Below, piece after piece: positions 1 to 58,600 of a stretch of DNA of 64,000 nt. The translations under genes and the position numbers were made by a program. How positions within the stretch are numbered: the first letter of the stretch is position 1; every line of letters starts with the position of its first letter. The notes under the pieces were generated by a model that searched no databases, was not told the origin of the DNA, and saw nothing but the letters and a program-made list of their open reading frames with translations. The stretch comes from an uncultured bacterium. Its GTDB lineage: Bacteria > Acidobacteriota > Thermoanaerobaculia > Multivoradales > J023. The DNA lies in assembly GCA_965371445.1 (NCBI GenBank), contig CBDUYN010000036.1, positions 100 through 64,099 of the forward strand, in the 5' to 3' direction.

Positions 1-6054
<6,054 letters not shown>

Positions 6055-6058
<4 letters not shown>

Positions 6059-9000
6059 GCCGATCCTCCCTTCGGCACTCCGGAGCTCATCGTGGGTGAA
6101 GGCTCGAAAAGGGCTTCGAGACGCGCTGCCAGAACCTCGACGTGCGGTTGGGCGAGGATCGTGAAATGGTCTCCCCCGAGCGCCTCGACCGTCACCGGGC
6201 CTGCACACATAGAGCGCCACCTGGCGGCGGCCTGGCGGCGCCCTTCGGCGTCGAGCATCTCCGAGCAGAAAAGGGTCAGGCCTCCGGGGTAGGGCGACGG
6301 CCGATAACGGGTCATGGCCCGCAGACCGGCCGCCTGGACCTCGATCAGACGCCGGATCTGGTGGGTGCGGACGTCGACGGGAAAAAGCCCCGTGGCGTGC
6401 GCCTTCTCCAGGACGTACGGGATCCGTGCCTCAGGCTCCAAGGCCCGCAGCTCCTCTTTTTCGATCACCAGCTTCCCGCCTCCCAGATCGCGGATCAGCA
6501 GATCCAGAATCTCCAGGTCGTCCGGATCAGAAGTCTCGGGATCCAGCAGCAGGGTGTCGATCAACGCCAGGGTGGGGGACGAGCCGCGGGTCCTCAGTTG
6601 CGCGGCCATCTCGAAGGCCAAGAGGCCACCGAAGCACCATCCCAGAAGCCGCGTGGGCTCCGCCAGGCCCTGCTCGTCGACGATTTCAAGATAGGCGGCG
6701 GCCATCTCGGCGATGTCGTCGACGACCGCGCCGTGGCCGTCGAGCCCCAAAGCCTGAAAGCCGTAGACCGGTTGCTGCGGCCCCACGGTGCCGGCCAGCT
6801 CCTGGTAGGAGAAGACCGTGCCGCCGACCGCGTGAAAACAGTAGAGCGGCGGCTCCCGGCCCGCCGTCCGCAGCGCCACCAGACTGCCGGCCACGGAGCC
6901 TTCCGGGGGCTGGAACATCTGCTCCACGCGAGTCTCAGCCGCGGCTTGGTCACCGCGCAGCCGATCCGTGAGCAGCGCCCGCCCGGCGGCCGACAGACGA
7001 CGACGCCGGGCCGCTACCGCGGCCCGGCGTTCGGCGAGACGATCGCGCTTTCCCCGCGAGCTCAGAGCAGCGGTTTCGGCCGGCGCATCGGCAGCGGCCG
7101 AAGTCGGCGCGGATTCGAGACGGCCGTCGGGGAGATAACGCACCTGCGCCGGTTCACCCCCCGCTTCGCTGCCCTGCCGGAAGCGTCGCCCCCAGACACC
7201 GATCGGCACCGGCCGGCCGCTCGCATCCATCACTCGCGGTTGCTCCGCCCGTCGCGCCGGCCACTCGACGAGGAGCTGATGACGCTCGGAGGGCGCCAGC
7301 AGGGGCAGGGCCGAGAGGGGGCGGGAGACGTCCTCGGCGACGGCTGCGAGCATCGCCCGCAGATGGCGGATCAGGCGCAGGACGGTGGTGCGGTCGAAAA
7401 GGTCGCTGTTGTACACCAGGTCGGCACGCACCGCGCCGTCGCGACTTGCCCAGTTGAGAGCCAGGTCGAAATCGGCGGCGCCCTCGTTCCTCCTCGCCGG
7501 GGTGAGATGCAACGGGCGCAAGGTCAGCGCCGGCAGATCCCAGGACGCCTTCGGGACGTTGTCGAGAGCCACCATGACTTGAAAGAACGGCGTCTGCGAC
7601 ATGTCGCGTTCCGGCCGCAACTCCTCCACCAGTTTCGTGAACGGCAGATCCTGGTGGGCATAAGCCCCCAGGGTCACCTCGCGCACCCGCGCCAGAAGCT
7701 CGGCGACCGTCGGATCGCCCTTCAAGTCGACGCGCAGCACCAGCGTGTTGACGAAAAGTCCCACGAGGTCTTCGAGCTCGGCGCGGTTGCGTCCCGCGAC
7801 CGGAGCTCCGAGCAGCAGGTCGTCTTGCCCTGTATAACGCCACAGCAAAACGTCCATCACCGCGACCGTCACCATGAAAAGAGTGGCGTCACAGTCCTCG
7901 GCGAGCTTGTCCAGGGCTTCTCGCGACACCTCCGAGAGGTGGACTTGGCCGACACCGCCGCTGTAGTCCGGCGCGGATGAGCGCAAGCGGTCGGTGGGCA
8001 ACGACAACGTCCCGCTCGCCCCGGCGAGTTGGCGGCGCCAGTAGTCGATCTCTTCCTCCAGCACCTTGCCGGTGAGCCACTGCCGCTGCCAGAGCGCGAA
8101 GTCAGCGTATTGGAATTCGAGCTCCGGTAAGTGCAGCGGCTGGGTACCGGAAAACGCCAGATAATGGTCGATCAGCTCGTCGTTGAAGGTTCCTCTCGAC
8201 CAGCCGTCCGAAATGATGTGGTGCATGTTGACCAGCAACAAGTGTTCGGCACCGCCGAGGTCGACGAGCAAGGTGCGCAAGAGGTGACCGCGGCTCAGAT
8301 GGAACGGCCGGCACGCTTCCCGGTCGAGAAGACTCCGGCCGACGGTTTCACGCCGCGCTTCGGGCAACCCTCTGAGGTCGACCACCGACAACTTCGCCGC
8401 GCCTTCCGCGTCGATCACCTGAAACATCTGACCTTCCGCGATCAAGAAATGTGTACGTAGAGTTTCGTGACGACCCACGATGCCGGCGATGCTGGCGGCA
8501 AGCTTGGTAACATCGAGGTTTCCCAATATCGAAAAGCCTATCGATATGTTGTACGCCGAATTGTCCGGCGTCAACTGGTCAAGGAAAAAAATACGCTCCT
8601 GGGCAAAAGAGAGCGGCAGCCGGCCGTCGGCCGGACGCGGCACCTTGAAGAGCTGAGAATCCGCGGCGATCCGCTTCGTCTCGCGCAGATACGCCATGAT
8701 CTCGTCCTTACGGCGGCTCAGCTCGGAACGGAGCTCCGCGTCGAGCACCCCCTTTTGCGCGCGGATCCGCAGCCGCTCCCGCTCTTCGTCGAGCGTGATC
8801 CCGACCCCGGCCCGGCGCAGTTGGCTCAAGAAACGGGTGGTCGGCAAATCTCCGTGGGTGACATCCTCCCGCGGCACGACGCTGCGATCCAAGAGGCGCT
8901 CGGTCGAACCCAAAACGTGCGACACCATGTTCGCGAGCCGCTTGTACGTGAACGCGCTGTCGACGTCGCGCAACATCAGCCGGAGCGCAAGAAGGCCCCG

Positions 9001-9900
9001 CGTCGCCAGAAAAACGTCGTGCACGTCGTCCGACACGGTGAACGCCGGACGCACTCTTCGGTACCCGGAGAGAAACGCCTGACGAAGAACCGCGAAATCG
9101 TCGCGCTCGATGAGAAAGGTAAGCGGGGTCGCGATGTCGTTGAGGTGAAAGCTCCAGGCACAATCCGTAAAATCGATCGGGCAAAACGCCTCGCCGTTCC
9201 ACAGGACGTTCTCGGTGAAGGTGAAGTCGGCATGGGTCAGGCCGTATCCGTAGCTCTCGCGCTCGGCGTCGAAAAGGCGCCATTTACCACGAATCGCATC
9301 CGCCATGTCGTTGAGCCGCCGGAAGTCCTCCCGGGAGAGGAAGCGATCCCCGCCGGACGGCTGACGGAAGTCGTCCTCACCGATCAGGTCGGCGCAGCCG
9401 AGCTGCGGCCGCTCGAAGTCGTCCGGGACGTCGAACCGTCCGCCGTGGCGATGGATGCGCCCGAGCGTCTCGCCCAGCTTCGCGCATTGCTCCGCCGTGA
9501 TCGCCTCCGCCGTCAGATGCGTTCCCGCAATCCAACGAAAGAGCACGTAGTGCCAGACGCGTCCGTCGGCGGTCGTTTCCGAGGACAGCAGCTCGCCGTC
9601 ACGCCGCGGTATCGGTTCCTGAACCGTAAGCTTCTCTTCGGCGCGCAACGCCTGCAGCCAGCGTAGCTCCGATAACGTCGCCGCTGCCGAGTGGTGGGCG
9701 GTGGCGCGCAGAAAATATTCCCCCACTCCATCCGTGGCGCTGGCGGTGACGCGAAAGGACAGACCCGTCCGCGATTGTTGCACATCGACGCGAACGATGT
9801 GATCAAAGTCGTAATGGGTCAATATCGCCTCGGCGACACTTGTACGCGTACGCTGTTGGCGCCCACTTTCTGTGTTCTCAGGTTGTAGCTGTTCGAGCAT
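6055..9900 (-). CDS. Atypical NRPS protein: APH/homoserine-kinase-II-like phosphotransferase domain, TubC_N-type docking domain, C domain, A-domain remnant, and thioesterase with a Cys nucleophile; no carrier domain
   Basis: 1281-aa ORF with ATG at 9900, preceded by GAGGTGG. Kinase-fold motifs are GLTHADFTFTENVLW and PIDFTDCAWSFHLNDIA. The docking-like stretch is TRFLSQLRRAGVGITLDEERERLRIRAQKGVLDAELRSELSRRKDEIMAYL. The C domain carries LPLSFAQERIFFLDQ and MHHIISDGWS. After the C-A linker (SERHQLLVEW) only a short degenerate stretch follows: RVMDASGRPVPIGVWG...VRYLPDGRLE. The TE carries LYCFHAVGG, GWCFGG, LALIDT and GGDHFT. I found no GG(H/D)S carrier motif. Confidence 0.85.
6121..6888 (-). 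other. Type I thioesterase domain with a Cys-Asp-His triad
   Basis: LYCFHAVGG. GWCFGG at 6625-6642, where I confirmed codon TGC in the DNA. LALIDT (Asp). GGDHFT (His). Confidence 0.8.
7111..7290 (-). other. Degenerate adenylation-domain remnant
   Basis: The C-A linker SERHQLLVEW is joined directly to RVMDASGRPVPIGVWGRRFRQG...VRYLPDGRLE. This resembles the stretch YVLD..G.PVP.GV.GEL..GG...YRTGD..R...DG.LE of a normal A domain. Core motifs A1-A5, A9-A10 and the whole T domain are absent. Confidence 0.6.
7306..8628 (-). other. Condensation domain of the 6055..9900 protein
   Basis: LPLSFAQERIFFLDQ, MHHIISDGWS (8197-8223), YADFALWQRQW, PTDRLR, GLFVNTLVLR. Confidence 0.85.
8686..8847 (-). other. 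TubC_N-type (beta-hairpin) NRPS docking domain, here internal rather than N-terminal
   Basis: Residues about 352-405: LPTTRFLSQLRRAGVGITLDEERERLRIRAQKGVLDAELRSELSRRKDEIMAYLRE. This matches the pattern L..L...GV.L...G..L...A.KG.L..EL...L...K.EI..(F/Y)L as I remember it for this docking family. Confidence 0.55.
8881..9843 (-). other. APH / homoserine-kinase-II / RdoA-like phosphotransferase domain (residues about 20-340 of the 6055..9900 protein)
   Basis: Catalytic-loop-like HADFTFTEN (9208-9234). Metal-binding-like IDFTD (9163-9177). Upstream EYFLR...ELRWLQAL...FRWIAGTHL layout typical of the fold. Confidence 0.7.
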
Positions 9901-17912: not shown

Positions 17913-20366
17913 CTATTCGTAGCGCAGGGCCTCGGAGGGCTCCACGGCCAGTGCCTTGCGGATCGGCATGAACGTCGCGACGAGCGTCACCAGAAAGAGC
18001 GGCGGGACGATCAGGACGAAAGCGATCGGATCGGTCGGTGCCACGTCGTAGAGCAGGCTCGACATGACGCGGCTCAAAGCGAAAGCCGCGCCGACGCCGA
18101 TCGTGATTCCAATCACCATGTCGAGGAGCGACTGCTTGAGCACCAACACGACGACCTCTCCCTTCCTGGCTCCCAACGCCACACGGACTCCGATCTCACG
18201 GGTCCGACGGCTGGCCGAATACGACATGACGCTGTAGATCCCCAGCGTCGTCAAGACGACCGCGGCGCCGGCGAAGAGCAGCATGAGGATCGTCCTGAAA
18301 CGTATCCCGCTCACGTCTTCCGCCATGCTCTCCTCCATGGTGATGGCCTCGAACACGGCACGTGTCGGATCGATTTTCCGGACCACGTCGCGAACCATTT
18401 CGACCATGGTGGCCTTGTCGGTTTCCGTACGGACGAAGACGTTGACCTGCGCCGCGGGGAGCTGGTCGAAGGTGACGTAGCAATCGCGGAGCATCTCGGA
18501 ATGAGAACGTCCCAGGCCCCGCATGCGCGCGTTGGAGACGACGCCGACGACCGTACGCCACCCATCCTGGCCGAAGACGTTGACCACACGTTTCCCGATC
18601 GCGCTCTCGCCCGGCCACAGCTCGTCGGCAATCGCCTTGCTGATGACGATGGTCGCGAGGCCGTCGGCGCGGTCCGTCTCGTCGAGCATCCGCCCCGCGA
18701 GCAGTCGCAGCCCGATCTTTTCCGTCGCTCCCGGGGTCACGAAGTGGATCCAGGTGTGCAGACGGCTGTAGGACGGATCCGCTTCCTTGCCCTCCGGGAC
18801 CATGTACAGAAACGTCGTGCTCGATCCCGGCAGCCCCATGCCCCAGAGGCCGGCGTCGATCACCCCCGGTAGCGCGGAGACACCCTCCTCCAGGTTGCGG
18901 AAGAAGACCCGAGCGATCTCCTCGTCCTCCTCGTAACGCGGGCCGTCGAGGATCAGCCGCATGTACACGAGGTTTTCGGTGTCGAAGCCGTAATCGGTCT
19001 TCGTGAACTCGTAGATGCTTCGGGCCATGAGACCGGCGCCGACCAGGACGGCGACGGAGAGGGCAACCTGCAGGACGACCAGGCCACGGCGCAAGAGGTT
19101 ACGCTCCCGGCCGCCGCCGCCCGTACCCGCACCACTCGGCCGCAGGAGGTCGTGGAAGCTGACCTTGGCGGCACGGATCACCGGCACCAGGCCGAAAAGC
19201 AGCGTCGTGGCCAGAGCCAGGAGCAGGGTGACCAGGAACACGCTCTTGTCGACCGACACCTCGGCGAAGCTGTACAGGTTCAAGGGATCGCTGGCGAACA
19301 CCAGCTTGACACCGGCGTAGGCCAGGAAGAAACCCACCAAGCCGGCGGCCAGCGCGATCGACACGCCCTCCGCCATCGCTTGATGGACGAAGCTCCGGCG
19401 CCCGGCGCCCATGGCCATCCGGACGGCGAATTCCCGGAGACGCTCGACGAAACGGGCGAGCAGCAGAAGCGTCACACTGATGCAGCTCAGGAAGAAAACC
19501 AGGCCGGACCCGAGGCCGAGCACCGTGACGGTGTCGTTTAACCGGCCAAATTGGGTACGCAGGTCCAAAAACGAGGTCACGCGCGCCTCGACGTTCTTGT
19601 TGGTGTCGGGATATTCGTTCTGCAAAGCGATCGACACCGCCCTCATACCGGCGTGCGCCTGCTCGACCGTGACACCCTCGCGGAGACGTCCGACGACGAC
19701 CGACGTGTAGAAGCGGCGGTCCTCGACGAACCCTGGCGACCCCTCGACGGCACTCCGCCGATAGGGCACCACGACTTCCATGGGCTCATAGCGGAGCCAG
19801 CGGGTCTTCTGCACCATGACCCCCACGACTTCGTAGGGATTGCCTCCCAGGGCGATCGACTGGCCGACGATGTCCGGGTCGCCGCCGTATTCCGACTGCC
19901 AGAAACCGTAGCTCAAGACGACGACCGGGATGCCGGTCGGCGGCTGGTTGTCGGCCTCGGTCAGCCGCCGTCCGAGGGCCATCTCCACGTCGAGCGTGTC
20001 GAAGAAGTACGGATCGACAAACATCATCATGACGCGTTCGGCGCCGTCGTCCCGCTGGACCGACGACGGGAAGTTCGTAAAGGCCGCCAGACCGTCGAAG
20101 AACTCCACGCCGCGTTCTTTCCAGTCCTGGATGTCGACGTAGGAAATCGCCTCGCGATTATGGATCGGCTCGGGACCCCTTCTCCACATCATGATGATGC
20201 GCTCGGGGTCTCGGTACGGCACCGAGCCGAAATAGATGGACTGCGCGAGAGACAGGATCATCGTTACGAATCCGATTCCCAGGGCCAGGATGAGGACCAC
20301 CAGAGAGGTAAACCGAGGGCGTCTGGCAAAGGATCTGAGACCACTGCGGATGTCTTTGCTTAGCAT
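17913..20366 (-). CDS. ADOP-family (duplicated FtsX/MacB-type) ABC transporter permease
   Basis: ORF 17913..20381. The track start is TTG at 20381. ATG 20366 is preceded by GAGGAAGGTGAAA. The N-terminus MLSKDIRSGLRSFARRPRFTSLVVLILALGIGFVTMILS...VPYRDPERI is the typical ADOP/MacB-permease head. The roughly 820-aa length fits two FtsX-type TM bundles, and the protein ends ...ALAVEPSEALRYE. No ATPase gene is adjacent. Confidence 0.82.
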   Translation of the reverse strand: MLSKDIRSGLRSFARRPRFTSLVVLILALGIGFVTMILSLAQSIYFGSVPYRDPERIIMMWRRGPEPIHNREAISYVDIQDWKERGVEFFDGLAAFTNFPSSVQRDDGAERVMMMFVDPYFFDTLDVEMALGRRLTEADNQPPTGIPVVVLSYGFWQSEYGGDPDIVGQSIALGGNPYEVVGVMVQKTRWLRYEPMEVVVPYRRSAVEGSPGFVEDRRFYTSVVVGRLREGVTVEQAHAGMRAVSIALQNEYPDTNKNVEARVTSFLDLRTQFGRLNDTVTVLGLGSGLVFFLSCISVTLLLLARFVERLREFAVRMAMGAGRRSFVHQAMAEGVSIALAAGLVGFFLAYAGVKLVFASDPLNLYSFAEVSVDKSVFLVTLLLALATTLLFGLVPVIRAAKVSFHDLLRPSGAGTGGGGRERNLLRRGLVVLQVALSVAVLVGAGLMARSIYEFTKTDYGFDTENLVYMRLILDGPRYEEDEEIARVFFRNLEEGVSALPGVIDAGLWGMGLPGSSTTFLYMVPEGKEADPSYSRLHTWIHFVTPGATEKIGLRLLAGRMLDETDRADGLATIVISKAIADELWPGESAIGKRVVNVFGQDGWRTVVGVVSNARMRGLGRSHSEMLRDCYVTFDQLPAAQVNVFVRTETDKATMVEMVRDVVRKIDPTRAVFEAITMEESMAEDVSGIRFRTILMLLFAGAAVVLTTLGIYSVMSYSASRRTREIGVRVALGARKGEVVVLVLKQSLLDMVIGITIGVGAAFALSRVMSSLLYDVAPTDPIAFVLIVPPLFLVTLVATFMPIRKALAVEPSEALRYE

Positions 20367-20377
20367 TTTCACCTTCC

Positions 20378-21543
20378 TCAAGTTGGAAAAGAAGAGATCT
20401 TCCGAAGCCGCGCCTCGCGTTCGTGGCCGAAAGCCGGGTTGACGGTACAGGTCGAGCCCTCCGCGGCCAGCTCCGCGTCGGTGCAGACACCGCAGAAAGT
20501 GCAGGGCACGATGTCCTCAAGACGGCCTTCGCTCACCTTGCGGGGCAGCTCCGGATCGGCGATCAACGCGCGGCCCATGGCCACCAGGTCGATTTTACCC
20601 GCCGCCAGGGCGCTCTCGGCGAGCGGTGGCGGTATCCGGCCGCAGGCGACGACCGGGATGGAGACGGCCCGGCGGATCTCTTCGGCGTAGGGCAAAAGCC
20701 CGCCCTCCGGCCAGCTCATGGGGTCGACCCGGACCTCGCCGACCAGGGAGACCGAGATGTCGAGGACGTGGACCCCGGCCTCCTCGAGCCATTTCGCGAC
20801 CTGCCGCGTCTCCCCGAGGGTGATGCCGTCGGCAAGCGGCTCAAAGCCCTCCACGCACCGGCATTCGACGGCGCTCAGGCGGCAGAGCAGCGGGTAGCTC
20901 GTGCCCACTCGCCGCTGGACCGCCGCCACGACCTCGAGGAGGAAGCGGGCACGGTTCTCGAGCGTGCCGCCGTACTCGTCGCGGCGGTGGTTGTAGGTTG
21001 GGGAGAGGAATTGGGAGAGGAGATAGCCGTGGGCGGCGTGCAGCTCGACGCCGTCGAAGCCGGCCATCCGGACGCGGGCCGCGGCCGCGGCGAAGCGTTC
21101 GACCAGCTCGGGGATCTCGTCGGCGCGCAGCTCGCGGGGCGTCTCGCCGAAGTGGTTGGGGATCGGCGAAGGGGCCACGGGCTGCTCGCCGGTGATCATC
21201 GAGGTGGCCTTGCGGCCGGCGTGGTGGAGCTGCAACACCACGGCGGCCCGGGCGCCGCGGACGGCGTGGGCCAGCTTCCGCAGGCCGGGCAGGAACTCGT
21301 CGCCGTCGGCGCGCAACTGGCGCGGCGTCAGGTGTCCCCGCGGTGCCTCGATCGAGGTCGCCCCCACCAGCACCAGGCCGGCGCCGCCCTCGGCCCGCGC
21401 CCGATACGCCTCGACCATGCGCTCGCTCACCTGCCCCGACGGCTCCGCAAAGCCGCAGTCCATGGGGGCCATCACCATGCGGTTCCTGAGCTTCAGGCGA
21501 CCGCAGGTGAAGGCGGAGGTCAGGTGGGGGAAGGTTGGACGGC

Positions 21544-21547
<4 letters not shown>
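20378..21547 (-). CDS. Old Yellow Enzyme family NADH:flavin oxidoreductase (FadH/enoate-reductase-like TIM barrel plus CxxCxxC...C motif, no C-terminal FAD/NAD(P)H domain)
   Basis: The true start is the internal ATG at 21547 (MSRPTFPHLTSAFTCGRLKLRNRMVMAPM...). It forms an ATGA overlap with the stop of the upstream megasynthase at 21544-21546. OYE motifs: VLQLHHAGR and GFDGVELHAAHGYLLSQFLSP..N.R.DEYGG. C-terminal cysteine motif: PCTFCGVCTDAELAAEGSTCTVNP. Confidence 0.85.
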
Positions 21548-29157
<7,610 letters not shown>

Positions 29158-55230: not shown

Positions 55231-56265
55231 CTATTCCACGGTCCGCAAGTCGACGTAGCCGGGGTAGTCCTGGATGTGGGACAGGTCGTTCTCGAGGACC
55301 GCCACGTCGCCGCGCCGCTCGATTTCCTTGAAGCCGGCGAAGCGGTAGGTGACCACCATCAGCCGGTTGCGGCCGGTGGAGACGAGCTCGGCCCGTAGCC
55401 GGACGCCGGCGCCGCGTGCCCGCTTCATCAGGTATCCGAGGAGGATCGAGCCGACGCCCCGCGACATCACCCGGCACGACATCAAGAGCAGCTTGAGCGT
55501 CCAGACAACCTGTCCCAGCTCCACGAGAGCGAGGCCGATCTTGCCGTAGGTGCCGTACTTGTCCTCGAGGCTCGCGACCAGCAGCAGGTGGTCGTCCGAC
55601 TGGCGACACGCGTCGAGCTTCTCGTAGGAGTAGGTGACGCCGGTCGAGTTGAGCTGATGGGTGCGCACCGTCAGCTCCTCGGCACGCTGCAAGTCCTCTT
55701 CGCTCGCCGGAGCGATGGTGAAACGCATGTCGAGGGAGGCGAGGAACCCCTCGTCGGGTCCTTCAAATGCCTCCTGGACCTTGTTGCGCGTGGCGTCGGC
55801 CTGGTACATCCGGCGCCGGAGGGCCGACTCGTCGGTCAAGAAGCGCGGTATGAGCTCCGGCCGCTCTGCGAGCCCGGGAACTTCCTCAGCGTCGTAGACG
55901 AGCACCTCCGGCAGGGCGTAAGCCACCTCTTCGCGCTCGAAGGGCTGGTCGTCGACGAACGCGACGGCGTCGAGGCCGACGTTGATCGACTCGGCGATCC
56001 TCTTGATACCGGCCGACTTCGCCGACCAGCTGATCTGCGGATAGAGGAAGTAATGATCGAGGCCGAGGCGAGCCAGGGCCTCCATCGCCATCTCGGGGTC
56101 GTTCTTGCTGGCGATCGAGCACAGGATGCCGCGCTGGTCGAGCGCCTCCAAGGTCTCGCGGGCGCCGTCGCGCAGGCGCAGCTCGTCGCCCTCGATCAGC
56201 GTGCCGTGCCACAGGGTTTCGTCGAGGTCCCAGACCAGGACCTTGACGACGCGTTCTTTCTCCAT
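55231..56265 (-). CDS. FkbH-like protein (HAD-superfamily IIIC phosphatase / glyceryl-ACP loading enzyme)
   Basis: 344 aa. HAD motif I is VWDLDETLWHG. HAD motif III-like is AFVDDQPFERE. The C-terminal half carries LLLMSCRVMSRGVG, the conserved Cys motif of the FkbH-like domain. Its neighbours are an ACP, an acyl-CoA DH and a 3-hydroxyacyl-CoA DH. Confidence 0.82.
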   Translation of the reverse strand: MEKERVVKVLVWDLDETLWHGTLIEGDELRLRDGARETLEALDQRGILCSIASKNDPEMAMEALARLGLDHYFLYPQISWSAKSAGIKRIAESINVGLDAVAFVDDQPFEREEVAYALPEVLVYDAEEVPGLAERPELIPRFLTDESALRRRMYQADATRNKVQEAFEGPDEGFLASLDMRFTIAPASEEDLQRAEELTVRTHQLNSTGVTYSYEKLDACRQSDDHLLLVASLEDKYGTYGKIGLALVELGQVVWTLKLLLMSCRVMSRGVGSILLGYLMKRARGAGVRLRAELVSTGRNRLMVVTYRFAGFKEIERRGDVAVLENDLSHIQDYPGYVDLRTVE

Positions 56266-56289
56266 GTCCGTCCTCCCTCCCTGGCGATC

Positions 56290-57465
56290 TCAGAGCTCCG
56301 GCAACGGGAACCGCGGAATGAGATTCTGCTGGATCTGGGTCGTCCCCTCGATGATCTCCGTCACCTTGGCGTCGCGCAGGTAACGTTCCACGGGATAGTC
56401 CTCGGTCAGGCCGTTGCCGCCGAAAAGCTGCACCGCGGCATTTGCCGCGGCCACCGCGGTGCGCGAGGCCACGTACTTCGCCATCATCGTCTCGGCGGCC
56501 GCGGCGGGGTCGCCGTCCTGGCGCAGGGTGGCGGCGCGGCAGCAGAGCAGCCGCGCGGCATGCGTCGAGGTAAGCATCTCGGTGAGCTTGCGCCGTACCA
56601 GCTGGTGCTCGGAGATCGGCTTGCCGAACTGCACCCGCTCGCCCGTGTACTGAAACGACGCCTCCACACAGGCGCGGGCGATCCCCACCGAGCCCCAGGC
56701 GACGCTGAAGCGGCCCTGGTCGAGCGCCGTCGACGCGACGTGCGAGAAGCCGAAGCCGATGCGCCCCAGGATCTGCTCCGCCGGTACCCGGCAGTCCTCG
56801 AAGAAGACCTCCGCCACCCACGTCGCCCGCGTACCGGTGATGGTTCGCATCGGCCGGCGGGTGATCCCCGGCGTGTCACCCGGCACGAGCAGCGCGACGA
56901 GCTTGCCGCCGACTGGTTGGCCGTCTTTTGATCCTTCACAGCGCGCGAAGACCATGAAAACGTCGGCCACCTGTCCGAAGGTGACCCACTTCTTGCGGCC
57001 GTTCAAGACGAAGCTCTCGCCGTCGAGGCGCGCGGTGGTCTCGACCGCGGTGGCGTCGCTGCCCACGTTGGGCTCGGAGAGGCCGATGGCGGCGAGCTTC
57101 TCGCCGCTGGTGAGCTGGCGCAGGAGCTCGGGGTCGAGGTGGGTCCGGCCCCAGCGCCACACGGTGTAGGCGGTCATGTCGTGGACGGTCAGGAGCGACC
57201 GGGTCGAGGAGCAGGCGCGGGCGATCTCCTCGGTCAGGAAGCCGTAGAGCAGCGGATCCATGCCGCCGCCGCCCGACTCCTCGGGCAGGCCGGCGCCGAG
57301 GTAGCCCGCGTCGCGCAGCTTCTCGCGCATTTCCATCGGGACGGCCCCCGCCTTGTCCCACGCCGCCGCGTGGGGGGCGACGTGCTCGTCGACGAACTGG
57401 GCAAAGCGCTCCCGGGCCGCGCGCTGGGCAGGGGAGAGCTTCAGCCACATGCCGGATTCGCTCAC
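56290..57465 (-). CDS. Acyl-CoA dehydrogenase family protein (FkbI/ZmaE-like)
   Basis: 391 aa. GTG start at 57465, preceded by AGGAGGAGGA. Typical ACAD layout: AAIGLSEPNVGSDA, FVLNGRKKWVT, and C-terminal QLFGGNGLTEDYPVERYLRDAKVTEIIEGTTQIQ. Confidence 0.9.
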   Translation of the reverse strand: MSESGMWLKLSPAQRAARERFAQFVDEHVAPHAAAWDKAGAVPMEMREKLRDAGYLGAGLPEESGGGGMDPLLYGFLTEEIARACSSTRSLLTVHDMTAYTVWRWGRTHLDPELLRQLTSGEKLAAIGLSEPNVGSDATAVETTARLDGESFVLNGRKKWVTFGQVADVFMVFARCEGSKDGQPVGGKLVALLVPGDTPGITRRPMRTITGTRATWVAEVFFEDCRVPAEQILGRIGFGFSHVASTALDQGRFSVAWGSVGIARACVEASFQYTGERVQFGKPISEHQLVRRKLTEMLTSTHAARLLCCRAATLRQDGDPAAAAETMMAKYVASRTAVAAANAAVQLFGGNGLTEDYPVERYLRDAKVTEIIEGTTQIQQNLIPRFPLPEL

Positions 57466-57475
57466 GGTCCTCCTC

Positions 57476-57721
57476 CTATGCGGACGCGCCTCTCTTGCGC
57501 TCGACGAGGGCGTCGATGGCGTTCAGGCTCCGGAAGTTGTCGAGGTCCAGGTCCTCGTCCTCGACCGTGATGCCAAACTCCTTCTCGACGAACTGGACGA
57601 GTTGCATGGCCAGGAGCGAATTGACGAAGCCGAGGGCGAAGATGTCCTCGTCGGCCGCAAGCTCGTGGTTGCGCAGGAAGCGGGCGAGGAACTGCCTGGT
57701 CTTGGTCTTGCGGTCGTCCAT
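57476..57721 (-). CDS. Discrete acyl carrier protein (FkbJ/ZmaD-like)
   Basis: 81 aa and acidic. The candidate phosphopantetheinylation site is LGFVNSLLAMQLV. It sits between the two dehydrogenase genes with gaps of 10-12 nt. Confidence 0.78.
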   Translation of the reverse strand: MDDRKTKTRQFLARFLRNHELAADEDIFALGFVNSLLAMQLVQFVEKEFGITVEDEDLDLDNFRSLNAIDALVERKRGASA

Positions 57722-57733
57722 GGAATCGAACCT

Positions 57734-58600
57734 CTAGAGCGTGGTGGCGTAGTCGTAGAATCCGCGGCCGCTCTTGCGGCCCAGCTCGCCAGCGAAAACC
57801 ATCTTCTCGAGCAGCGGGCAGGGACGGAACTTAGGGTCCCGGTAGCTCTCCCAGAGCACCACGAGCGAGTCGAGGATGGTGTCGAGGCCGATCAGGTCTC
57901 CGGTCTCGAGCGGCCCCATCTTGTGGCCAAAGCAGGTCTTGAAGAGACGGTCGACGTCCTCGGCCGGCGCGACCCCGTCCTGGACCACGAAGATCGCCTC
58001 GTTGATGGTGAGCATCAGCACCCGGTTGGTGACGAAGCCCGGCATGTCGTTGACCACGATCCCTTCCTTGCCCATGCCGGCGAGGAAGGCGCGGGCCGTC
58101 TCGAGGGTCTCTTCCGAGGTGTGGTGGCCGCGGATCACCTCGACCGTGGGCTTGAGCGGTACCGGGTTCATGAAATGCATCCCTACGACCCGGTCGGGAC
58201 GCCGAGTGAGGGATCCGAGACGGGTGATGGAGATGCACGAGGTGTTGGCCGCCAACACGCACGGCTCGGGGCACACCTCGTCGAGCCGCGGGTAGACCTC
58301 GGCCTTCACTTCCCATTTTTCGATCACGTTCTCGACCACGAAGTCGGCCTTCGAGAGCGCCTCGTAGTCGGTGGTGGCCTCGATGCGCCCGAGGATCGTG
58401 GCCGCGCTCTCCGCGCCCTCGTTCTTCTTGGCGAAGAGGCTCTGCATGCGCAGGTTCTGCCGGATCTCCGAGCGCGCTCGCTCGAGCTGGGCCTCGCCGA
58501 GGTCGATCAGGACGATCCGGTGTCCGGTCTGGGCCAGGTTCTGAGACACGCCGACTCCCATGACGCCGGCTCCGATGACTCCGATGGTTTCTAGCTGCAT
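57734..58600 (-). CDS. 3-hydroxyacyl-CoA dehydrogenase family protein (FkbK/ZmaG-like)
   Basis: 288 aa. N-terminal Rossmann motif IGVIGAGVMGVGVS. HBD-type motifs GMHFMNPVP, PGFVTNR and GPLETGDLIGLD. It is the first gene of the operon, with GGGGAAGAAGG just before its ATG. Confidence 0.9.
   Translation of the reverse strand: MQLETIGVIGAGVMGVGVSQNLAQTGHRIVLIDLGEAQLERARSEIRQNLRMQSLFAKKNEGAESAATILGRIEATTDYEALSKADFVVENVIEKWEVKAEVYPRLDEVCPEPCVLAANTSCISITRLGSLTRRPDRVVGMHFMNPVPLKPTVEVIRGHHTSEETLETARAFLAGMGKEGIVVNDMPGFVTNRVLMLTINEAIFVVQDGVAPAEDVDRLFKTCFGHKMGPLETGDLIGLDTILDSLVVLWESYRDPKFRPCPLLEKMVFAGELGRKSGRGFYDYATTL

Follow-up and report, generated by a model that had tools for sequence, protein, structure and literature searches.

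A carrier-less nonribosomal peptide synthetase subunit with a cysteine-type thioesterase in an uncultured acidobacterium

We analysed 64,000 nucleotides of DNA from an uncultured bacterium of the Acidobacteriota (contig CBDUYN010000036.1 of assembly GCA_965371445.1, positions 100 to 64,099); this whole stretch is called the window below. It carries genes for nonribosomal peptide synthetases (NRPS), and we focused on the protein P6, whose thioesterase (TE) has a cysteine where a serine is usual. Alignments and a structural model marked this residue, Cys1089, as the nucleophile of a type-I TE that is intact and probably active, with a triad of Cys, Asp after strand β6, and His. The explanation that we favoured, although tentatively, was that the TE of P6 terminates the line formed by P1 to P5 and releases in trans a chain ending in a residue like diaminopropionic acid (Dap), and that the following protein, P7, starts a new chain. 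Window proteins are labelled P1 to P7, proteins of relatives P0xxx, and the loci of relatives L0xx. All window features described below lie on the minus strand.

Catalytic residues of the P6 thioesterase

The minus strand at 6642-6625 was read as GGA TGG TGC TTC GGT GGC, which is translated as GWCFGG (6625..6642) where GWSxGG is usual. The TGC codon at 6634..6636 encodes Cys1089, the residue of the nucleophile elbow. The domain (6115..6849, P6 residues 1018-1262) matched the type-I profile PF00975 of Pfam with an E-value of 2.8e-26 and a score of 93.6 bits (cut-off, 26.4). When about 160-170 related TE domains were aligned, Cys1089 fell on the nucleophile column of the GxSxG motif. Asp1115 (6556..6558, in LALIDT) stood on a column that was D in 157 of 162 sequences, and His1245 (6166..6168, in GGDHFT) on a column that was H in 160 of 162. 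An AlphaFold2 model of the TE (predicted local distance difference test, 89.8) agreed with the alignments. In this model, Cys was located between strand 94-98 and helix 100-114, forming a classical elbow. Asp1115 was located right after strand 120-124, which is β6, a placement termed 'position I' (PMC11298585), and the triad His came after the last strand. This corresponded to the geometry of a type-I TE of an NRPS or polyketide synthase (PKS), with Cys rather than Ser as the nucleophile. The earlier note had read a Cys in the place of Ser, with Asp and His in their usual positions and a triad that looked functional; the codons, the alignments and the model bore out this reading.

Comparison with known cysteine thioesterases

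The TE was placed by its ranking against PDB entries, the position of Asp and its motifs, and ObiF, SulM and BulbE were compared by their published descriptions. The best sequence match was the AB3403 TE of Acinetobacter baumannii (4ZXH, E 1.1e-28), which also carries GWCFGG. AB3403 was likewise the best fold match (TMq 0.78, 30% identity), followed by the TEs of skyllamycin, gladiolin, Pks13, FAS, oocydin and Vlm2. Together, AB3403, EntF and Pks13 were the best matches. ObiF and SulM were absent from the 36 PDB sequence hits and from the top 50 fold hits, and type-I TEs led both lists. In ObiF and SulM, the catalytic Asp lies after β7 ('position II'), and both are grouped with type-II TEs; the motif of the SulM TE (SulTE) is Gln-Cys-Asn, and AB3403 is the one other solved Cys-TE, with Asp after β6 (PMC11298585). 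BulbE-TE has the triad Cys961/Asp988/His1097 with Asp after β6 and forms a macrolactam via an indole nitrogen, and its Cys-to-Ser mutant yields hydrolysis only (PMC11536411). The P6 TE had the Cys nucleophile of the strained-ring TEs, but its Asp1115 followed β6 instead of lying at position II, and Trp-Cys-Phe was found in place of Gln-Cys-Asn. Because of the Asp after β6 and the Trp-Cys-Phe motif, the sequence and the predicted fold place the TE with the AB3403 and BulbE kind of Cys-TE, and not with the strained-ring pair of ObiF and SulM. A kinship with this pair, which the earlier note had named, was thus not supported, as the best matches were AB3403, EntF and Pks13.

The individual comparisons were consistent with this placement. 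AB3403 (C-A-T-TE, with condensation, adenylation and carrier domains as C, A and T; PDB 4ZXH/4ZXI) resembled the P6 TE in motif, Asp position, sequence and fold, and differed in having its own A and T domains in cis. Neither the product of AB3403 nor the function of its Cys has been characterised, so it gives no hint of the chemistry. BulbE-TE, from the bulbiferamide NRPS, was similar in its triad and Asp position, with a Cys-Asp spacing of 27 compared to 26 in P6, a likeness taken from the published description. In contrast to P6, it works in cis and closes a 15-atom macrolactam through the indole nitrogen. The ObiF1 TE, which makes the β-lactone of obafluorin, shared the Cys nucleophile, but its Asp follows β7 and a β-hydroxy amino acid sits on its last carrier. 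The SulM TE with SulN, from the pathway of the monobactam sulfazecin, had several features in common with P6: the Cys, a Dap-like code in the feeding module, a D-residue before Dap, and a group-transfer enzyme before release. However, SulTE differs from the P6 TE in its Asp after β7, its Gln-Cys-Asn motif, its type-II-like ancestry, its position in cis to the carrier and its sulfotransferase partner, whereas P6 has type-I grouping, a TE in trans behind a C domain, and a kinase-like accessory domain.

A type-II editing TE was also considered, that is, a stand-alone protein of ~250 aa with GHSxG near RifR, RedJ and SrfD. Against it spoke the fusion of the P6 TE, the GWCFGG motif and the weak scores of type-II TEs, which were only 1e-4 to 1e-7 compared to 1e-28 for AB3403.

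Frequency of cysteine among related thioesterases

The earlier note had regarded Cys-containing NRPS TEs as rare, and this view did not hold. We searched 1.84 billion cluster representatives exhaustively with HMMER and obtained 30,207 relatives. Among 174 TE domains, taken from the 150 best proteins and from earlier hits, 17 had Cys and 151 had Ser, and the Cys cases made up at least 12 separate lineages of a distance tree. In a second sample of 80 metagenome loci chosen by likeness to the TE start, Cys was found in 19 of the 80 TE domains and Ser in 61. Cys thus stands in 10-24% of related TEs, and Cys-TEs, although rarely studied, are not rare by these sequence counts. Elsewhere they came after modules with Gly, Ser, Thr, Leu, Val and other codes. 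Since Cys-TEs are not rare and follow many kinds of module, the Cys alone does not point to four-membered rings.

P6 was the sole member of its own 50% cluster among the 1.84 billion representatives. The nearest neighbours of its TE (≤42% identity) all had Ser, except P0122, which was among the closest and had Cys. No orthologue of P6 was found in the scan of genome contigs, which gave only C-domain relatives with 38-47% identity, from metagenome-assembled genomes of Acidobacteriota, Planctomycetota and Verrucomicrobiota. A first metagenome scan with the TE aligned to P0001 gave no matches.

Two further groups of Cys-TEs were observed. The proteins P0015, P0028, P0075 and P0139 have two TEs in tandem, of which the first has Cys (GRCFGG or GVCIGG) and the second lacks the nucleophile (Gly, Ala or Asp); P0015 has the order AT-KR-ACP-sulfotransferase-TE-TE. 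An elbow of GYCMGG was shared by a sizeable group of metagenomic TEs, in L024, L025, L031, L037, L043, L047, L057-L059, L073, L078, L083 and L087. These TEs often occur as T-TE on a separate open reading frame (ORF) after A-T, follow Gly-, Ser- or Thr-code modules, and look like an unstudied clade of Cys-TEs.

Domain organization of P6

The ORF of P6 (6055..9900, 1281 aa) encodes an APH-family kinase-like domain, TubC_N, a C domain, an A stub, a helix and the TE. The larger domains were assigned by Pfam, and the stub and helix by comparison with relatives. The APH domain (9049..9777, residues 42-284) has HAD..N and IDFTD motifs, and its nearest named family was homoserine kinase type II, an O-kinase, with a match far below the cut-off. 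The TubC_N (β-hairpin) docking domain (8680..8835, residues 356-407) is the likely partner of the P5 tail. The C domain (7270..8622, residues 427-877) has an intact HHIISDGWS motif, is LCL-like, and was 46-48% identical to ordinary elongation C domains. It is followed by a vestigial A-domain stub (7114..7260; LLVEW..RPVPIGVWG..RYLPDGRLE), which is kept in P0229 and L019.

No carrier domain was detected in P6, either by Pfam at E ≤ 0.01 or, with all filters off, by a hidden Markov model (HMM) trained on the 11 T domains of the window. As a control, the same HMM recovered the two T domains of the adjacent protein (1e-31 and 1e-34). The TE is therefore not fused behind the carrier it serves, unlike the usual arrangement of type-I TEs. 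Because P6 has no carrier domain, its TE must act in trans, as the earlier note had stated.

Known systems resemble this arrangement only in part. The ACP-ST-TE of CurM and other olefin synthases (ST, sulfotransferase) has a leaving-group-installing domain between the last carrier and the TE, where P6 may have a counterpart, and relatives of the P6 cassette carry a sulfotransferase there. However, CurM has no C domain between ST and TE, and the accessory domain of P6 is kinase-like. The α/β-hydrolase shuttles CmaE, SyrC and the LgnA TEII also act in trans between carriers of separate NRPS subunits, but each is a small protein on its own, from a different hydrolase lineage, and transfers aminoacyl units. 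The CmaE and SyrC shuttles, which P6 resembles in logic only, use Cys. The LgnA TEII uses Ser77 (PMC8748450).

No precedent for a kinase or phosphotransferase domain in an NRPS was found in the literature. DabA-type threonine kinases were considered as a lead and dropped, as they are GHMP kinases rather than APH. In L013 (10001-24302) and L012 (445-14950), successive NRPS subunits are each headed by an APH-like domain and then TubC_N. Because consecutive subunits of relatives each start with one, subunits of this lineage seem to carry the kinase-like head quite generally.

A probable release cassette in relatives

In P6, the A stub is followed by a basic helix (6952..7065, residues 946-983; LSSRGKRDRLAERRAAVAARRRRLSAAGRALLTDRLRG, with ..LSAAGRALLTDRLRG) ahead of the TE. 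Its motif is the same as in the N-terminal docking helices of P4 and P5, and it matched genuinely stand-alone TE proteins starting MKSPL..LSAAKRKLLAKRIRG. The search with the helix and TE-start profile returned only fragments of <200 aa, and was used solely to show that stand-alone helix-TE proteins exist.

Similar arrangements were found in relatives. P0229 of L018 is composed of sulfotransferase-C-stub-helix-thioester reductase and is followed by a MacB-like permease gene. L019 has ..A-T-C-stub-helix-TE. P0044 of L016, with the helix only, has C-A(Thr)-T-sulfotransferase-C-helix-TE as a single ORF, and A(Leu)-T-C-A-T-C.. begins 18 nt further on, whilst P0039 has the helix only, behind a degenerate A domain. 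L049 has ..A-T-C-TE, with no further same-strand NRPS domain in 4.9 kb downstream. The architectural twins P0044, L019 and L049 all have a Ser nucleophile. Because the stub or helix was seen in P0229, L019, P0044/L016 and P0039, the comparison identifies C - (A stub) - helix - release domain (TE or reductase) as a recurring carrier-less unit. No description of such a unit was found in the literature. Because a reductase variant exists, the unit would release chains rather than edit them.

In L016 (117-6776), L017 (15-6398) and L018 (39-3521), a sulfotransferase lies between a carrier and the next C domain, after modules with Thr- or Dap-like codes. This suggests that the embedded sulfotransferases may perform on-line sulfonation of a tethered residue.

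The last module of P5

The protein upstream of P6, P5 (9939..17885), has the domain order C-A-T-E-C-A-T, in which E is an epimerization domain, and ends with the acidic tail ..EEVEEFEI. This tail resembles those of relatives, ..EEWEL and ..EEGEL, each of which is followed by a TubC_N-headed subunit, so that the motif E-E-x-E-[LI] was found ahead of such a subunit in three loci. Because the P5 tail matches the tails preceding TubC_N subunits in relatives, the hand-over of the chain from P5 to P6 is well supported. The last carrier domain of P5 (10035..10226) is most likely the one that carries the substrate for the TE.

The last A domain of P5 (10308..11738) gave the code DIWEVTADDK upon code extraction, which resembles the L-Dap 'mode 3' of SulM. 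Compared to DVWEMNADDK of SulM A3, 7/9 listed positions were identical, the substrate being predicted from the code. The SulM L-Dap code, Asp-Val-Trp-Glu-Met-Asn-Ala-Asp-Asp, was named 'mode 3' by its authors, who reported it from no other known cluster; in homologues of SulM A3, position 2 is Ile and positions 5-7 are variable (PMC12042044). A literature search on the A-domain codes gave no matches. As in sulfazecin, an E domain is present in the module preceding the Dap-like module. No free amine other than the Dap β-amine is predicted for the chain. A code of DIWE[VI]TADDK was found in 7 of the 290 A domains collected (the window, P0193, P0206, P0133, P0092, P0120 and P0205). It stands directly before an APH-headed subunit in P0193, which is followed by the next L013 protein, and directly before a sulfotransferase domain in P0206. 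Among all TE-bearing proteins examined, only the window had this code in the module feeding a Cys-TE. No sulfotransferase was found in the window, where the APH-family domain occupies that place, and no Dap-synthesis genes were found in the window.

Proposed release in trans and alternative explanations

Based on the above results, the following course of termination is proposed. The acidic tail of P5 would dock on the TubC_N of P6, and the last P5 carrier would present a lipo-polyketide-peptide ending in D-Xaa and an L-Dap-like residue. The chain would be transferred to Cys1089 by transthioesterification and then released. The cassette is fused behind an ordinary LCL-type C domain with a kinase-like domain and a β-hairpin docking head. 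The Cys would have replaced Ser in this lineage through the change of a single nucleotide, as has happened repeatedly within the TE clade. The sequence, the predicted fold, the arrangement of the triad, the lack of a carrier, the docking elements and the repeated occurrence of the cassette are observed, and from these we infer which carrier the TE serves and which nucleophile releases the chain. By analogy, the Cys-to-Ser data for BulbE, ObiF and SulM suggest that Cys may bias release to capture by a poor or amine nucleophile and not by water. L049 and L018 show the cassette as a true end, which supported P6 as the terminus of the P1-P5 line.

Several observations weigh against this proposal, and most of them concern the gene downstream. 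The TE gene is not the last NRPS gene of the window, because P7 (1..6058; A(Leu-like)-T-C-A(Val)-T-C..) comes after it. P7 was missing from the ORF list because its frame runs off the window end; it is open for at least 2019 codons and passes the left window edge at base 1. Its start (ATG at 6056-6058) overlaps the P6 stop as ATGA, and the protein begins MNETALDLLVEWNDT.. The code of its first A domain is DAWFLGHVVK (Leu-like) and that of the second is DALWLGGTFK (Val). P7 opens with neither a C domain nor a docking head. It begins at the C-A linker motif LLVEWNDT, repeating the LLVEW found at the end of the P6 C domain. In addition, P6 27-918 and P7 11-2016 are colinear with a single L013 protein, APH-TubC_N-C-A-T-C-A-T-C-A. 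The cassette and the stop/start thus formally sit inside a C-A junction, because the two window proteins together correspond to one protein of the relative. The gene order of the window was also found in L015, where the TE gene is followed by an overlapping gene starting with an A domain, and in L016. L015 was the only relative with >50% identity (57% over the C-terminal half of the TE), and it is silent on the conservation of Cys because the available sequence does not reach the nucleophile. In P6, the C domain retains HHxxxDG and resembles a normal elongation domain, and the docking helix is conserved although it is unneeded for a carrier already docked or in cis (L016).

These observations are accounted for by a module split at the C-A junction, with the P6 C domain joining the chain from P5 to the Leu-S-T1 of P7. 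The TE would then have no part in handling the Dap-ended chain; recruited by its helix, it would release the final product from the last downstream carrier, or it would be a shunt or editing outlet. The LCL-like type of the C domain, which comes after an L-residue module, and the Leu-code A-T with which the downstream proteins of both the window and L016 open are consistent with such condensation. However, the cassette relatives L049 and L018 have no A-T gene after them, no docking pair was visible between P6 and P7, and the reductase variant favours chain release over editing. The end of the downstream line also lies off the contig. We considered the split module somewhat unlikely.

It was also asked of the data whether the Cys has any special meaning at all. 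It could be a neutral Ser/Cys polymorphism of a hydrolytic or macrocyclising TE or a base-call error, or the TE could now be only structural. A single base separates TGC from TCC and from AGC, which often encode Ser in these genes, and the metagenomic contig is a singleton in the databases, so that a base-call error at the Cys codon is possible. The independent Cys lineages, the Ser of the nearest neighbours and of the architectural twins, and the nucleophile-less copies among the tandem TEs of the clade also agree with this reading. The ratio of nonsynonymous to synonymous substitution (dN/dS) of the TE compared to L015 was 0.62, which is not strongly purifying, and that of the neighbouring A domain was 0.52, values that are weakly informative at a dS of ~0.6 in GC-rich genes. 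However, the TE shows no faster decay than the A domain beside it, and its triad and predicted fold are intact. Moreover, in all three Cys-TEs tested in the literature, Ser cannot replace Cys for the native reaction (PMC11536411). A Cys of no special meaning was thus rated as quite unlikely.

The formation of a sulfazecin-like β-lactam was judged still less probable. In this case, the Dap β-amine would be activated by the kinase-like domain, not by a sulfotransferase, and the chain on Cys1089 would be closed to a four-membered lactam. The earlier note had looked to the Ser module and the ketide hydroxyls for the nucleophile of a strained ring; these lie several units upstream of the chain end and could therefore give large rings only. 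The code DIWEVTADDK, which departs from the SulM code in the way its authors report for the homologues (PMC12042044), fits the β-lactam, as do the preceding E domain, the Cys nucleophile, the group-transfer domain between carrier and TE, and the single predicted free amine. In relatives, a sulfotransferase was found right after Dap-like or Thr modules. Against it stand the Asp after β6 and Trp-Cys-Phe of the TE, the absence of ObiF and SulM from both sets of hits, the Ser of the nearest TE relatives and the variety of modules that Cys-TEs follow. The lack of Dap-synthesis genes in the window also counts against it, and the APH heads occur on consecutive L013 subunits regardless of release, with a nearest named family that phosphorylates hydroxyls. 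The strained-ring reading survives only through the Dap-like module, because the TE itself departs from SulTE in its Asp position and motif. It would be a long shot that P6 has converged on a second way of making a monocyclic β-lactam or some other strained ring from Dap, with a type-I Cys-TE that acts in trans from a carrier-less kinase-C-TE subunit on a lipo-polyketide-peptide ending in D-Xaa-L-Dap, and with phosphoryl activation replacing the N-sulfonation of sulfazecin.

Other observations in the window

The two C domains of P7 (about 2790-4260 and 1-1050) showed 74% protein identity and 82% DNA identity, suggesting that a module was duplicated recently. Further upstream, the gene for an OYE flavoenzyme (20378-21511) matched only the N-terminal half, positions 8-370 of 645, of full-length relatives. 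It has neither the TubC_N head nor the Pyr_redox half seen in L013, and it may be truncated. It is immediately followed by a MacB/FtsX permease gene (17913-20381). In the protein C-A(Ser)-T-KS.. (21544-29157), residues about 1650-2400 past the KS gave short partial AT and KR-N profile matches only, and these domains are either degenerate or unrecognised. At 55231-58600, an FkbH domain protein (TIGR01686, 271 bits), an acyl-CoA dehydrogenase and a 3-hydroxyacyl-CoA dehydrogenase are encoded together. This combination is typical of the supply of a glycolate-derived (hydroxy- or methoxymalonyl-ACP) extender unit.

Significance

Only three Cys-TEs have been studied biochemically, and Cys was essential in each for a difficult ring closure. 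Our comparison indicated that such TEs are common in uncultured soil phyla after many kinds of module, so that the residue alone is no predictor of strained rings. The Cys swap itself is ordinary, and the carrier-less context of P6 is the more unusual feature. P6 represents an undescribed, carrier-less and putative termination cassette that is found at a C-A junction, often after a kinase or sulfotransferase domain. Its Cys-TE, together with a group-transfer domain, a Dap-like last module and the D-residue before it, makes it a concrete candidate. If the cassette releases chains in trans, a new logic of termination would be added, and NRPS engineering would gain a portable part. A real link to Dap would point to new monobactam-like chemistry.

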